A DNA stretch of 20,000 nucleotides from an uncultured virus (IMG/VR IMGVR_UViG_3300009378_000006) (taxonomy: Duplodnaviria > Heunggongvirae > Uroviricota > Caudoviricetes), in IMG/VR virus record IMGVR_UViG_3300009378_000006. One strand, given 5' to 3'. Every line of letters begins with the position of its first letter. Position 1 is the first letter of the stretch. The position numbers and the translations under genes were made by a program. The notes under the pieces are model-generated. The model made no database searches. It saw nothing but the letters and a program-made list of their open reading frames with translations, and had not been told where the DNA came from. Shown here piece after piece: positions 7,052 to 20,000 of the stretch.

Positions 7052-7068
7052 CGCGACAGACTGTCGCG
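7052..7068. promoter_or_regulatory. Palindromic operator-like site CGCGACAG-A-CTGTCGCG
   Basis: Perfect 8-bp arms between divergent promoters; 7054-7070 is repeated inverted at 19318-19334. Confidence 0.6.
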
Positions 7069-13506: not shown

Positions 13507-13734
13507 TCAGAAGATGCTCTGGTGGCCGTGGATGAGGAAGCTGTCCGGCCCCACCAGGAAGGTGAGACCGGCGTCAGGTGCCTCGGGTGGGTCCTCGTCC
13601 CAGGGGCGGCGCATCATCAGCTCGAGGCGGACCCCGTGCTGCCATGCGCGCGTGGGCTTGAGCCACTCGATGGAGAGCAGCATCAGCCCTCCCGGGAGGA
13701 GGATTTCGATGTTGTCGAGCGCGTCGTGGTTCAC
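13507..13734 (-). CDS. Hypothetical protein (75 aa)
   Basis: GTG in a GTGA overlap; (M)NHDALDNIEILLPGG... Confidence 0.65.
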   Translation of the reverse strand: MNHDALDNIEILLPGGLMLLSIEWLKPTRAWQHGVRLELMMRRPWDEDPPEAPDAGLTFLVGPDSFLIHGHQSIF

Positions 13735-14657
13735 TTCATCCTCATGCGGAAGAGCTTGGTGCCGCGGGAGATGAGGGCGGTGCCCCCGTCCTTGTGCAGC
13801 AGCATGTCGCCGCTGAGGCCAGTGTCCTCCACGATCTTCATCCCTGTCGAGCTCATCCGGCTGGAGAACACCTCGAGCTTCTCCTCCTCGGTCATGCACA
13901 CGCAGATGCCGCTGTCGAGGGTGACGAAGTTGAGGTTGGTCGCGCCCACGTCGTGCTCGGTGCGCAGGTCGTAGACGCTGCCGTCCGTGAAGCGGAAGAC
14001 CAGCCTGTCGAACTGCCCACCGCGCTCGCCGATGACCATCAGCACGCCGCGGTCGTACTTGGCGTCCAGGATGCGGTAGCCATCGAGCTCCTGGATGCGC
14101 ACCTGCATGTGTGTGCTGGGGGTGGGGAAGTAGGACACGAAGACCGAACCCAGCAGGTTCTGGATGGCGACGCCGGGGTACAGCGTCGTCGAGCGGCCCA
14201 GGATGTGGGCCACCTCACGTGTCTGCGCCAGCTCCTTGCCCCCTGCCTCGCGGAAGGTCACCTCGACGATGGTCCGCCTGGTCTTGGCGTAGAGCCGGCC
14301 GTCGTAGGACATGACGTCGTCGACGTCGAGGGCGAACGCGCCGTAGTTCACATTCATCCGCATGACTGCAGTCATGAGGCTGTGGCCGCGCAGGGTGCAC
14401 AGGACCGGCCGGTTGTCGATGTCGCGGACCACCACGGTCTTGTCGGGCGGCAGTGAGTAGTTGTGCCGCATGTAGAAGGCGCTGGCTGTGGTGAGTACGA
14501 CGTCGTCGTACACCGCGAGGATGGGAGGCCCACCCGTGTCCAGCATCTCGTCGAAGTCCAGTCCAGCGGTGGACACCACCTTGGACACCACCTGCGGCAC
14601 CACGAGGACCATCTGCGGGGTGTCTGGCGGTGCGACGCGCTGTCCGCGCTCGAGCAC
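13731..14657 (-). CDS. Beta-rich C-terminal region of a Ser/Thr kinase-like protein with no kinase domain (possibly a truncated gene)
   Basis: 308-aa high-GC3 ORF beginning (A)VLERGQRVAPP and containing ELDGYRILDAKYDRGVLMVIGE...FDRLVFRF; from memory this matches the region after the kinase domain in a bacterial/phage kinase family. Confidence 0.6.
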   Translation of the reverse strand: MLERGQRVAPPDTPQMVLVVPQVVSKVVSTAGLDFDEMLDTGGPPILAVYDDVVLTTASAFYMRHNYSLPPDKTVVVRDIDNRPVLCTLRGHSLMTAVMRMNVNYGAFALDVDDVMSYDGRLYAKTRRTIVEVTFREAGGKELAQTREVAHILGRSTTLYPGVAIQNLLGSVFVSYFPTPSTHMQVRIQELDGYRILDAKYDRGVLMVIGERGGQFDRLVFRFTDGSVYDLRTEHDVGATNLNFVTLDSGICVCMTEEEKLEVFSSRMSSTGMKIVEDTGLSGDMLLHKDGGTALISRGTKLFRMRMK

Positions 14658-14659
14658 AG

Positions 14660-14812
14660 CCCCTGGCCGCCGGTGTCCTTGATGACGTCCCTGAGCATGC
14701 CAGGGATGAACATGTCGCCGATGTCGATGTCAGTGCTGAAGCACTCCTCGAGGAACATCATGATCTGCTTGGTGGTGAGCACAGGCTCTGTGAGGTTGCG
14801 GTACTCAGGCAT
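14660..14812 (-). pseudogene. 5' fragment of a gene (MPEYRNLTEPVL...) joined out of frame to the downstream ORF
   Basis: About 50 protein-like codons after a GGAG RBS; the frame then continues to 14372 as shadow-frame sequence. Confidence 0.5.
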
Positions 14813-15040
14813 AACGGGTCTCCAGGGGTGGGGACCCCGGACGCGTGGAGGGAGAGCCACGCGCCCGGGGTGCACACGGCCGGCCGAGGAGGCTAGGCCG
14901 GTAGAACCCCCTCCTGTCTTCATCGAACCGCAGGGCCGCGGGGCCGCAGCGGTGGGGGGGAGGGCCGCCCGGCACGCCGGCAGGCCCTACGGTCCGATGA
15001 AGACAGGAGGGAAGAGACGAGCGGGTCTGCTCCGTCTCAT
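14813..15040 (-). ncRNA. Structured leader or sRNA with anti-SD-like loops (family not recognised)
   Basis: 29-bp inverted repeat 14909-14937/14983-15011; hairpins at 14834-14871, 14880-14901 and 15014-15038; the three mismatches in the two long stems are G-U on the minus strand; directly downstream of promoter copy 2. Confidence 0.7.
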
Positions 15041-15042
15041 CC

Positions 15043-15072
15043 TTCTTATCGCATGACGGCCTGTCGTTCTTG
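15043..15072 (-). promoter_or_regulatory. Putative phage-specific promoter, copy 2 (CAAG-N19-ATAAGAA)
   Basis: Motif match; spacer carries a degenerate operator CGACAGGCCGTC. Confidence 0.6.
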
Positions 15073-15077
15073 CAGGC

Positions 15078-15731
15078 CTACTGGGAGGTGAGCGTGAGGG
15101 CCGGACTGGCGTTGAGGGCGGGGGTCACGCGGTTGGTGGTGTAGTCCACGACGACCGGGTAGGGGAAGGTGGTGACCTTGGACTCGATGTAGATGGGCAC
15201 GGTCTCGCCGTCGTACACGCACCTCACCCAGGTGGCGATGGAGTTCTTCGAGGGGAAGAGGCCGTTGGGCTCGGCCTGCTCGGTGATGGCCGCGCTCACC
15301 CCACTGTACCGCTTCCACTCGGCCTTGAGCGGGTTGGTGATGGAGGTGTCGAAGGGGATGGGGTAGCCGATGCTGGGGCAGTCGAACTCCACCAGCCCGT
15401 AGTCGGAGCGCCAGACGGTGTGGGTGGCCACGTTCTCCTGGCGCGCCTGGTAGAGCTGGATGTAGATGTCGCGCTCGAGGGAGTAGTCCAGGAAGGGCAC
15501 CGGCTGGGACTTCTGGTAGTGGTCCATCTGCCGGTTGGTGGCTGCGACATCCTGCTGGTCGGCCGAGGGCGTCGTCGCCGAGCAGCCCATGGTGTTGAGC
15601 TGCGTGCTGCTGCCATCGGCGTTGCGGCCGCTCAGGGCGGCTCCGATGACGGCGAGGATGATGCCGAGGATGGCGACGACGATCATCACCTCGATGAGGG
15701 TGACGCCCTTGCGGTTGTGGAACGGGCTCAT
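15078..15731 (-). CDS. Prepilin-type N-terminal cleavage/methylation domain protein
   Basis: NRKG|VTLIEVMIVVAILGIILAVIG: G-1, E+5 and a hydrophobic helix, i.e. a class III signal; AAGGAG RBS. Confidence 0.8.
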   Translation of the reverse strand: MSPFHNRKGVTLIEVMIVVAILGIILAVIGAALSGRNADGSSTQLNTMGCSATTPSADQQDVAATNRQMDHYQKSQPVPFLDYSLERDIYIQLYQARQENVATHTVWRSDYGLVEFDCPSIGYPIPFDTSITNPLKAEWKRYSGVSAAITEQAEPNGLFPSKNSIATWVRCVYDGETVPIYIESKVTTFPYPVVVDYTTNRVTPALNASPALTLTSQ

Positions 15732-16162
15732 TGGGTCTCCTTCAGGAAGGCGAGCACCGACTCGGGCAGCTCGTCCTCCGGCAGTCGTTGAGCCTCCCGC
15801 TCGATGCGGTCGGCGAGGGTTGCGTTCTGGGCCTCGAGGGCCATGGCCACGTCGGTCAGGCCAGCGGCCTGCGCCTCAGCAGCCTCGACCTGGCCCTCAC
15901 GGTACTCGTCGAGCCAGGTCAGGAGCATCGACTCCTTCCCCTCGACGTACTGGTGGCTGTGCTTGGCGACGTCACGCTCGACCTCGGCCACCGCCACCTT
16001 GGACTTGCCCTCCAGCTTGATGATGGAGGGCTTGACGCTGAACCAGACCACGAGGAGCACGACCACCACAGCCAGGCCGCCGAGGCCCCAGATGATGGCC
16101 TTGGAGAAGAGCCAGCTGTCGCTGGGTCCGTGTTCATCGTAGTCGTCTTCGAATCGGGACAT
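15728..16162 (-). CDS. Single-TM membrane protein with a helical soluble domain
   Basis: IIWGLGGLAVVVVLLVVWF TM segment; GGAGG RBS; coupled to the pilin-leader gene. Confidence 0.8.
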   Translation of the reverse strand: MSRFEDDYDEHGPSDSWLFSKAIIWGLGGLAVVVVLLVVWFSVKPSIIKLEGKSKVAVAEVERDVAKHSHQYVEGKESMLLTWLDEYREGQVEAAEAQAAGLTDVAMALEAQNATLADRIEREAQRLPEDELPESVLAFLKETQ

Positions 16163-17423: not shown

Positions 17424-17454
17424 AGCTCAGGCCTCCTTTCACAAGCGGTTCATC

Positions 17455-17483
17455 CTCTTATACCCACAGGCCGACGGTCCTTG
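17455..17483 (-). promoter_or_regulatory. Putative phage-specific promoter, copy 3 (CAAG-N18-ATAAGAG)
   Basis: Motif match upstream of the RBS of the first gene of an operon. Confidence 0.65.
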
Positions 17484-17540
17484 GCAGGAGCCCAGAGATC
17501 GTGTAGATCCGATCACAACACCAACCCGAGAGGAGTTCAG

Positions 17541-17765
17541 ATGCCCCTACCCGAGACCCTGGTACACAACCTGGAAGGTGAGGACCTCTACGCCCTGGAA
17601 GAGGCAGTGGAGAAGTTCTTGAAGGCCCACGATGAGCGCTACCACGGTGGGCACTGCCAGCACCACATCCAGGTCCTGAGCTCGCCCATCGTCATCTCCC
17701 CCGAGGGGCGCTACCAGATGCTGCTCATCTACAGGACGGATGACGACAGCCTGACCCCCACCTAG
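17541..17765 (+). CDS. Hypothetical protein (74 aa)
   Basis: MPLPETLVHNLEGEDL... after GAGGAG. Confidence 0.7.
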   Translation: MPLPETLVHNLEGEDLYALEEAVEKFLKAHDERYHGGHCQHHIQVLSSPIVISPEGRYQMLLIYRTDDDSLTPT

Positions 17766-18235
17766 ACCCCAGCCACCACACCCAAAATCCCCATACCGCT
17801 TCAGGCCGCAAGACCACAAAGGCACCTCGGCGCAAAGCACAGATGGTCCTGGCATGGGTGTTACCCCTAGTAGTACAGGGAACTAGCAGGAAGACAGGGC
17901 CAGCCGTGCCGTGCAGGGCCCTCCCCACGTGCAGCCCCCCAGTCCGCCACAGGGCTCAACAGGGGCAGTTGGTCTTTTACAGCCCAGGGGGAACATCAAC
18001 CCAACAACCAACAAGTTGGAGTTGGACGTGGTAGTCCATAGGGGGCTCACAGCCCATGGGAGCACCATCCAGGGCGCCAATCACATGCACTCTGGATGTG
18101 CGTATGCTCATGCAGCTATCGAAAGGGGCACTTGGTCGAAACAGGGGGGACCCCCGGGTATGACAAATTTGGTGGGGTGGGGGCACCCAACAAAATTTTT
18201 TTGGTTCTCCCTGGGGACCAACAGCCGGGAGTTGG
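17766..18235. repeat. Non-coding region with short repeats and an AT-rich imperfect palindrome
   Basis: Eight CAGGG on the plus strand; CCAAC/GTTGG nested inverted repeats at 18001-18025; inverted repeat 18165-18179/18184-18198. Confidence 0.5.
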
Positions 18236-18269
18236 CTCGTGTGCGCAGCTGGGAGTTCGGGGGTAAAAG

Positions 18270-18454
18270 AGAGAGGAGGGGCGGCCGGTGCGCGCACAGT
18301 CCGGCGCGCCGGGGGCGGCACGGGACCGACAGTCCTCCTCCCTCCCGCAGTGAGGCACGCTGGCCCGGCGGCACTCGCGTACCCACGGGCTCAGCTACAC
18401 CCTCACCACTTGCGGGAGCGACCCGCCAGTTGGAGCCGGTAAGCGACCCGGCTC
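18270..18454. other. GC-rich multi-hairpin non-coding segment
   Basis: Stems GAGGAGG/CCTCCTC, CTCCCGCA/TGCGGGAG, GTGAGG/CCTCAC and GAGCCGG/CCGGCTC. Confidence 0.4.
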
Positions 18455-19244
18455 AGTGCCTCGAGCCCAGCCGCCCGTTCTGGCAGCGGGGGCAGGGGAT
18501 CGTGGTCCCCTCCCAGGCGTTGGGGCTGAGGTCCGGCACCGTCTCGTCCCCCTTGCACAGGGAGCAGACCGGCTTCTCCTTGGCCTGGGGGACCAGGGTC
18601 ACCACCGCGGGCAGGCAGCTGCACTCGCCCACCGTGTCCCGGCCCATGCCCACCTCGCCGCTGCCCTCGCAGATGCGGCAGCCCACGTCCGGCGCCAGCT
18701 CCTCGAGGTCCCCGACGCCCGTGATGGCCCACACCGCCCGGACCAGCCGCTCGTAGTTCAGCTGCGGCTTGTCGGTGAGGACCATGGAGGTGGTGCGGTG
18801 GTCGGTCTTGGACCGCAGCAACAGCCGCAGGTCCGGATCCACCGTGGCCTCCAGGACGGGGCCCGACGTGCCGAACATGCCGTCCTGGATGATGCCCACC
18901 TCGAAGGCCGCGCTGCCGGTGAAGCTGCCCGTGTAGTCCTCCCCGCGGTCGTCCACGTAGGACTGCGGGAGGTCGTTCAGCAACGCGCGCATCGCCAGCA
19001 GGAACCGCCCGACGCTCTCCTGGACGTGGACGACCAGCACCTGGACGTAGGTGCCGTCGCGCTCCTCGGTCCCCAGCAGGAAGGAGCGGTTCCCCCGGCG
19101 CGCCAGGATGGCCTCGTCGGAGATGTCGACGGCCGTGCCGTCATCAGGGCTGTCCTCGTACAGCTCGACCCTCTTCTCAGCCTTGAGCTGCTCGAAGGTG
19201 TTCTGCGCGCGGGACTCGAACGAACCAATCGTTTCCAGAGCCAT
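18453..19244 (-). CDS. Hypothetical protein with C-terminal DnaJ-like CxxCxGxG Zn-finger motifs (263 aa)
   Basis: Start MALETIGSF (19244) after AAGGGAG; CRICEGSG, CSC, CSLCKGD, CPRCQNG. Confidence 0.8.
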   Translation of the reverse strand: MALETIGSFESRAQNTFEQLKAEKRVELYEDSPDDGTAVDISDEAILARRGNRSFLLGTEERDGTYVQVLVVHVQESVGRFLLAMRALLNDLPQSYVDDRGEDYTGSFTGSAAFEVGIIQDGMFGTSGPVLEATVDPDLRLLLRSKTDHRTTSMVLTDKPQLNYERLVRAVWAITGVGDLEELAPDVGCRICEGSGEVGMGRDTVGECSCLPAVVTLVPQAKEKPVCSLCKGDETVPDLSPNAWEGTTIPCPRCQNGRLGSRH

Positions 19245-19309
19245 CTGGCTCTCCCTTGTGCCCCCTGGTTGTAGCCAGAGCATGGGGGCGTGTACTTCTC
19301 TGGCTACAA

Positions 19310-19339
19310 CTCTTATCCCCGCGACAGTCTGTCGTTTTG
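19310..19339 (-). promoter_or_regulatory. Putative phage-specific promoter, copy 4 (CAAA-N19-ATAAGAG), with the operator palindrome in its spacer
   Basis: Motif match; CGACAGACTGTCG lies inside the spacer. Confidence 0.7.
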
Positions 19340-19810
19340 CAGATTTCGGGGTAAGAGACGCCGACACCGATGAGGTGCCGACGCTCCTGCCGGAGGACTA
19401 TTGCTGCTGGCGGCCCAACGACAAACCGCAGGGACGGCCGGCTCGCGTCGCGTCGCGCCGCGGCTGAAGTAGCCACGGACACGCCGGCTCTTGCGCCTGG
19501 GGACCGCAAGCAGTCCCTTCCGCCCAGCCAGCTCTGGACCCGGGGCTCCGGCCATCGGGAGGTCCCGCAGGCCTACCTGACCACCCCAGCACCGTCCAAC
19601 CTCGAGTCCGCGGTTCCTGAGTCCGGACACTCCAGCGTCGCTGCCTGGTCGCGAGAGTACGCGAGGTCCATCCGGATCCTGCCCCAACGGGCTGACCGCT
19701 CGCTGTGCGGCCCATCCCACCGTGGGGCCTCCATCCCTACCCCCTTCCTGGTGCCGACGGCGCACGCCATGAAGGCGGCCGACAGCTACTCGTGGGTAGG
19801 CGTCCTACCT

Positions 19811-19840
19811 CTCTTATGGCAGGGGACCCAACAGAATTTG
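19811..19840 (-). promoter_or_regulatory. Putative phage-specific promoter, copy 5 (CAAA-N19-ATAAGAG)
   Basis: Motif match; no convincing gene in the following 450 nt. Confidence 0.6.
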
Positions 19841-20000
19841 TTGGCTAAACAAAGCGGCCCGGGGGCCGCAGTGTTTGCTCCCCCCCGTCCCTCGGGGGAC
19901 AATCCTGCCAGCCGACGAAGGGGGGGAGCGAGCCCCGTCGGCGTCGTCGCCCCGTTACGCGAACCCTGACCAGGCGGTGGCGTTCTACCTGGGCCGAGGG

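Follow-up and report, generated by a model that had tools for sequence, protein, structure and literature searches.

A clade-restricted structured RNA with C-rich loops at the predicted head of a phage transcript

To our knowledge, large phages of environmental bacteria have so far yielded few base-pairing RNAs, and a literature search, mostly among papers free of subscription and in their main texts, found nothing on the RNA element described here or its phage family. The accessible part of a review of phage sRNAs contains no C-rich example (PMC12197685). With regard to bacterial systems, the C-rich loops of 6C RNA bind G-rich ribosome-binding sites (RBSs) without chaperones, as stated in the sections available of PMC6486639. 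In cuckoo RNAs, 2-4 hairpins lie side by side; they measure 24-50 bases and all bear the loop CCUCCUCCC (available excerpt of PMC4615179).

Here, we describe a phage element that is a structured, clade-restricted RNA of no described family. Its fold was computed and, as we infer from its promoter, it stands at the head of a phage transcript. An initial sequence-only reading had not recognised any family either, and Rfam indeed gives no match at the element, both for the whole window and for the element alone.

Genomic setting, fold and loops

The window, i.e., the whole stretch of 20,000 nucleotides that was analysed, corresponds to positions 42998-62997 of a virus contig of 63,275 bases (67% GC), which is present in marine metagenome runs; no RNA run is found among the sequencing runs carrying it. 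A capsid gene on the contig places the element in phage DNA. Of 288 relatives of the capsid protein in viral contigs, 80 were kept; complete records among them span 177-197 kb, and among cultured phages Salmonella phage Arash comes closest (29%). A muramidase and a spanin-like gene suggest a Gram-negative host, and its use of Shine-Dalgarno (SD) sites is indicated by 56/70 rough gene calls bearing one, with starts that were picked for SD strength. Long stretches at 17430-18450 and 19370-20000 of the window hold no convincing genes. Read by eye, a 1003-aa terminase-like reading frame (L049, G000:3921-6932) seems to hold an intein with endonuclease. The features of the locus are as follows.

15078..16162, minus strand: two-gene cassette just upstream of the promoter, encoding a pilin-like N-methyl motif protein and a spanin-like 144-aa protein
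15044..15075, minus strand: putative phage-family promoter GCAA-N18/19-SATAAGA, the spacer holding a degenerate half of a 13-bp palindrome (motif counts; kept in run X7)
15014..15038, minus strand: 5' hairpin (fold prediction; diverged counterpart in run X7)
14909..15011, minus strand: long hairpin, a 29-bp stem (14983-15011 with 14909-14937, two G-U) plus unbranched apical extension (fold)
14953..14964, minus strand: loop 1, CCCUCCCCCCCA, fully exposed (fold, opening energy)
14877..14901, minus strand: hairpin 2 with CCUCCUC loop (UAGCCUCCUC), partly exposed, two registers (fold; counterpart inferred in a relative)
14834..14871, minus strand: hairpin 3, 15 bp with one G-U, loop CUCUCCCU at 14849-14856 (fold; counterpart inferred in a relative)
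14810..14823, minus strand: GGAG ribosome-binding site and ATG of gene X (sequence; homologues start at the same Met)
14654..14812, minus strand: gene X remnant, codons 1-53, continuing out of frame to 14372 (homologue alignment)
13731..14663, minus strand: C-terminal half of a Ser/Thr-kinase-family gene, overlapping the gene X remnant at a deletion junction (homology)

Folding predicts an RNA of about 230 nt with four very stable hairpins. The minus strand reaches -148.7 kcal/mol (z -9.86) and the plus strand a z of -6.90, each matched by 0/200 shuffles. The 29-bp inverted repeat is the longest of 8 short-spaced ones in the 63-kb contig (next: 16), and the 27-bp MFE helix is the longest among 72 promoter-proximal stretches of the phage family (next: 18). 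After GC correction, the stretch with the element ranks first of 421, narrowly (z -3.3 vs. -3.0 for the next).

All listed helices of the sequence-only reading reappear in place in the computed fold, i.e., the 5' hairpin (15014-15038), the 29-bp stem (mean pair probability 0.93), the CCCUCCCCCCCA loop (unpaired probability 1.0), the hairpin at 14880-14901 with UAGCCUCCUC and the 15-bp hairpin with loop CUCUCCCU. The multiway junction of small hairpins that it had placed on the long stem does not: ViennaRNA gives one unbranched extension with internal loops and a single C-rich end loop. All four non-Watson-Crick stem pairs are G-U on the promoter strand, namely the three mismatches noted before (two of them in the 29-bp stem) and one pair extending the long stem. 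It had further been claimed that the mismatches fix the strand. They are all G-U on the minus strand, but the claim is overstated: three G-U alone give this roughly 1 in 8 times by chance (our estimate), such that the strand assignment rests mainly on the promoter. Since GC is flat across codon positions in all six frames, we consider the element non-coding. On the same grounds, and because homologues begin at the Met at 14812, we discarded a coding reading that would start from the ATG at 14923 and share the frame of gene X.

Loops 1 and 3 cost 0.0 kcal/mol to open and both contain UCCC. Loop 1 has seven consecutive C and is the only loop of the element with six or more. In hairpin 2, the two registers compete, such that the CCUCC core is unpaired with probability 0.64 and costs 1.6-2.0 kcal/mol to open. 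Judged by these opening energies, the element has the exposed C-rich loops expected of the class of C-rich-loop base-pairing sRNAs. Three exposed anti-SD-like clusters are also reached by 5/40 dinucleotide shuffles and by 5/546 genome tiles. That is, they are uncommon, not unique, and only moderately beyond chance.

Promoter, variable neighbours and relatives

The promoter pattern, built from three copies in the phage contig, has 76 matches in 23/43 related phage records compared to 1 for the reversed control. The promoter copy that the sequence-only reading saw ahead of the element is therefore an instance of a family motif. Of 72 distinct copies, 47 are followed within 120 bases by an SD-led reading frame. 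A sigma-70 scan does not pick up the element's promoter. Its activity is suggested by the motif, and its 'early' timing would follow from its location outside the structural cluster. The 13-bp palindrome CGACAGWCTGTCG occurs 8 times in the phage contig, 6 times in G001 and not at all in the other 42 records. Its copies (window 7054-7066 and 19322-19334; G000 763, 5582, 11858, 18054, 22805 and 37903) are mostly intragenic and at matching places in the phage contig and G001; in the promoter at 19340, one copy separates the two boxes. The palindrome resembles a dispersed binding site of repressor or partition type, for which it is a candidate.

The minus strand has no U-run of at least 4 from 15045 to 13400 and hence no terminator. 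The RNA would thus form the 5' end of an operon transcript, and the free-standing sRNA gene, one of the options raised at the outset, is abandoned. What follows is variable. The full form of gene X is a 135-aa protein (P0027) with a weak YunG/transglutaminase-like resemblance that stays below every cut-off, so that the family name is a lead only. In the window, gene X matches its homologues up to codon 53 and is then joined out of frame to the C-terminal half of the kinase-family gene, whose kinase domain is absent from the contig. About nine bases at the junction serve both frames, and we suspect a microhomology deletion. Run X5, from a second study, has the identical junction, while the kinase sequence runs continuously across the site in the vent relative X7. 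In clusters P0018/P0021 and P0019, gene X is fused to the same kinase tail at other points. Gene X is thus cut at three different points in 3/4 lineages (the window and 2/3 homologue clusters, which were found via the gene X N-terminus), and the fusion is in frame in two of the three. The gene after the kinase and the kinase stop codon seem to overlap, and the deletions at 13731-14812 may therefore preserve translational coupling. On the other side, the two-gene cassette is missing in X7, where 15074 is joined to 16193 with the joint at the -35 box. Judged from these arrangements, promoter and RNA appear as the anchor between two variable modules.

Searches of the GenBank phage, viral, metagenome and GTDB collections and of related loci returned no homologous element DNA. 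Blastn against GenBank phages gave two 22-nt matches, both outside the element, and a 16-nt word of the stem gave 4 matches in viral contigs, none of them homologous. The kinase-based loci (1, 26 and 15) are distant and without the element, and G001 holds no copy. Comparing the element DNA with 50 records (40, mostly the largest, of the 80 capsid loci plus 10 kinase loci), we found 21-22-nt matches in 2/50, taken as chance (E 0.016-0.029). A single-sequence CM of the element (R1) detects its own genome only (1/44) and nothing convincing in 47 promoter loci or 74 further loci; a two-hairpin motif has no match in viral contigs and 58 in GTDB, none with promoter or gene X. Gene X itself was sought in the viral, metagenome and GTDB collections (0/37, 0/597 and 0/295 candidate stretches), and its profile has 10 matches in the 50 capsid/kinase records, all on the kinase tail.

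Over 14530-14859 and 14928-15083, run X5 does not differ from the window and so leaves no variation to compare. X7 retains the 31-base promoter; the next 30 bases are identical at 17/30 positions without gaps (hand count; binomial p ~0.001-0.002), and 6/7 pairs of the 5' hairpin are kept (hand count). X7 has no piece over 14713-15015 at >=80%, while its kinase pieces differ at 40/531 and 59/441 bases (~87-92% alike), which suggests that the RNA sequence drifts fast or differs in X7.

A further comparison is offered by P0021, whose protein was called with 39 extra N-terminal residues that are a chance translation of its leader. Using a degenerate back-translation of these residues, the leader aligns to 14912-14813 with 21.9 bits and 34/49 fixed positions identical, a score reached by 0/147 genome controls and 0/150 shuffles. 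The best stem that this leader allows falls on hairpin 3, with 14/14 pairs compatible and 4 forced; the unconstrained stem maximum is reached by 85/300 shuffles and is thus not significant. In a constrained test at the axes that the alignment predicts, devised after the unconstrained result and centred one base off the alignment (within tolerance), 16/1000 shuffles reach hairpin 3, 121 hairpin 2 and 10 both, a result that shared descent alone would raise. Diverged copies of the element, and thereby its conservation, are likely in relatives.

Both the fold and the changing neighbourhood bear on the question whether the element acts at the DNA level, i.e., as a MITE, cruciform or PeSL-like recombination cassette in a hypervariable region with the RNA fold as by-product. 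The cassette boundary at the -35 box in X7, recurrent deletions that begin 140-290 bases downstream of the element's 3' end and the nearly equal folding of both DNA strands (-80.6 and -83.8) fit this explanation. It leaves the inner loops unexplained, however, and the G-U pairs all lie on the promoter strand. A MITE, whose identification would have refuted the sequence-only reading, was rejected: the element is single-copy in 63 kb, is absent from G001 and shows no target-site duplication. PeSL stem-loops are repeated terminators in or beside promoter boxes (per the accessible text of PMC2839356), whereas here the promoter repeats, the structure does not and there is no U-tract; the PeSL assignment was rejected as well. 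Overall, we regard a DNA-level role as very improbable.

Proposed pairing in trans and competing explanations

We tentatively read the element as a base-pairing regulator that acts like 6C or cuckoo RNAs and is a member of neither, an assignment by analogy that has a serious chance of being right and still falls short of probable. The family promoter would initiate the transcript near 15040, and the first ~230 bases are computed to fold into the four hairpins, from which the RNA continues into a variable, partly dead operon without a terminator. The rigid stems would present three C/U-rich loops that could seed pairing with GGAG, GGAGG or GGGAG ribosome-binding sites of phage or host mRNAs; by analogy to 6C and cuckoo-type RNAs, pairing may block initiation without a chaperone. 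Since the three loops could pair with ribosome-binding sites, the element RNA probably tunes protein synthesis. The stems probably also protect the 5' piece or allow its cutting free; a 29-bp stem is long enough to serve as an RNase III substrate.

We favour pairing in trans because of the fold with its long helix and the loop exposure, because SD sites are apparently in use in the host and 6C RNA sets a precedent, because the gene behind the leader is cut at three points while the RNA is intact in the window, because the truncated P0021 lineage keeps a recognisable 3' 100 nt of the RNA, and because other family members bear promoter-led non-coding units with anti-SD motifs. Counter-points are the modest loop enrichment, the lack of an X7 piece over most of the RNA and the failure of the CM to detect the anti-SD units of other family members. 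It may also be that gene X was cut only recently, and its homologues were identified via the N-terminus. Concerning targets, loop 3 together with three stem bases forms an 11-base perfect complement to the RBS of the gene at 19244 (among 67 SD-bearing starts of the contig), which lies behind another promoter copy. An 11-nt match is found for 0/333 starts from other fetched loci and for 225/1500 SD-kept shuffles of the contig's own set. Co-folding of the element with the 19244 RBS yields no energy gain. As no target beats the control in the contig, i.e., in 63 of ~190 kb of phage genome, the 19244 match is a lead only.

The missing terminator, which speaks against pairing in trans, fits a cis-acting 5' leader, an explanation that we consider possible though rather unlikely. 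Here, hairpin 3 would hold the gene X RBS open until a trigger closes it, lowering gene X and the coupled genes; triggers may be the opening of hairpin 3, loop 3-GGAG pairing (a 5-bp pseudoknot) or a cut in the long stem. Both in the window and in the P0021 lineage, the element keeps its position ahead of gene X, and a 5-nt complement of loop 3 is present at the SD. RBS opening costs 3.1-3.9 kcal/mol in the intact RNA and 5.8-7.3 when the long stem loses its 5' arm (starts 14995-14922). The cost rises to 11.2 when that of hairpin 3 is missing; the 3' arm of hairpin 3, if unpaired, would cover the RBS. The leader behind the promoter at 19340 is likewise structured: at 19245-19310 (minus strand), 13 bp pair perfectly below a C-rich loop, and the start codon is covered by another hairpin. 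Yet the RBS in the intact fold is more open than the family median of 6.55 (n=47) and the controlled gene is broken in 3/4 lineages seen, which does not support simple cis repression of the GGAG site; control of this site had been one option of the sequence-only reading. Moreover, the leader offers no free partner to loops 1 and 2, whose sole complements are in the locked 3' arm, and no riboswitch or leader family matches. A cis switch is thus possible in the folding model, but its resting state would be open.

The long duplex, interrupted by G-U only, would also suit an element for processing, stability or protein binding, i.e., an RNase III site, a 5' shield of the operon mRNA or a sink for a host factor with affinity for C/U-rich single strands or the 16S 3' tail, the loops having no mRNA partners. 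RNase III cleaves dsRNA and acts on lambda N mRNA (part of PMC8708148 at hand), long hairpins occur in relatives too (e.g., 22 bp in L156), and no RNA target was found. Against this, CCUCC/CUCCC-type sequence in three separate loops is left unexplained and no candidate protein was identified. We deem this explanation improbable. If the element serves solely as a leader or for processing, it would be an unremarkable structured 5' UTR confined to its lineage.

A broader form of the pairing idea, in our view a long shot, is that the phage family's own promoters drive a class of exchangeable RNAs on which copies of the 16S rRNA 3' tail are exposed. The window RNA would then mask Shine-Dalgarno sites in general, so that ribosomes move from host mRNAs to those of the phage, or it would serve as decoy for a host defence nuclease whose target is the 16S tail. 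If true, this would be host takeover or counter-defence by RNA alone.

Analogues in related phages and comparison with known systems

Among 20 hand-picked promoter-led units of the phage family, those in G014 (also G013), G030, G025 and G020 share the promoter motif and are non-coding, 150-195 nt long and stably folded (z -3.2 to -6.1) with anti-SD motifs; among them, exposure counts lie above shuffles only for the G025 unit (2/40). None of the G013/G014, G025/G030 and G020 units has an Rfam match above threshold. Unlike the window element, whose CM does not detect them, they end in a terminator or a new promoter.

Four records (4/41) share a motif of anti-AUG plus anti-SD that is absent from the window element (L180:300-499 in G030, L210:100-300 in G025, L160 near 1683 in G014, and G013:163030). 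Between the G030 and G025 units there is covariation, with 5 double changes over 44 pairs, and the G014 and G030 units have neighbouring genes in common. A search with the target motif of the G025/G030 units returned these units and otherwise just scattered near-matches. We consider these units a candidate sRNA family of their own. The G020 unit (L175:320-496; G020:119214-119399, minus strand) stands alone and has ~175 nt, in which the promoter is followed by a long hairpin whose loop is C-rich and by a strong terminator with a U tail; ~2.3 kb away lies a cold-shock-like gene (named by eye). Its hairpin aligns to the element with 46 identical columns, yet was missed by R1 and is treated as an analogue. 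At 19850-19945 (minus strand) of the window, there is a second C-rich hairpin loop with seven C, a 10-base complement just downstream and then a terminator, possibly a switch or small RNA; another promoter-like site follows at 19840. Taken as analogues, the related-phage units make an anti-SD function of the element more plausible without proving it.

Among the known systems, staphylococcal RNAIII is more than twice the element's size and acts in the agr context, unrelated to that of the element. The resemblance lies in its three loops with UCCC-type motifs (as given in the part of PMC4615179 available), a motif found in loops 1 and 3 of the element, which has no sequence or structure match in Rfam.

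Cuckoo/CcsR RNAs of Alphaproteobacteria (RF02791) share with the element several adjacent hairpins with anti-SD-like loops and, presumably, co-transcription with a gene, but the cuckoo RNA lies 3' of its gene and the element 5' (in the sections consulted of PMC4615179). Membership was rejected: no loop of the element is CCUCCUCCC, its hairpins are unequal with one of four at 103 nt compared to the 24-50 given there for the family, and no Rfam model matches at the element at E<=10. A sub-threshold CcsR1 match lies elsewhere (19353-19426; 28.7 bits vs. 65.3).

With PeSL cassettes of T4-type phages, the element has in common a promoter plus stem-loop, a hypervariable region and a gene-module boundary at the promoter (accessible text of PMC2839356). 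The stem-loops of these cassettes are short and repeated, whereas the element is single-copy with four hairpins and, as its promoter suggests, is itself transcribed.

The closest mechanism is that of 6C RNA (RF01066; M. tuberculosis B11; available sections of PMC6486639), to which the element corresponds in a C-run loop on GC-rich stems and in its proposed pairing with G-rich ribosome-binding sites. In contrast to 6C RNA, for which that text gives six conserved C in the stem-loops, the element has a run of six or more C in loop 1 only and no match to RF01066, and we do not assign it to this family. At 230 nt and with a 29-bp rod, the element differs from 6C RNA further in being encoded by a phage and linked to an operon. 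If its loops silence ribosome-binding sites, the phage has reached the strategy of 6C and cuckoo RNAs on a different scaffold that heads a decaying operon, and the analogues in related phage genomes provide ready test cases.
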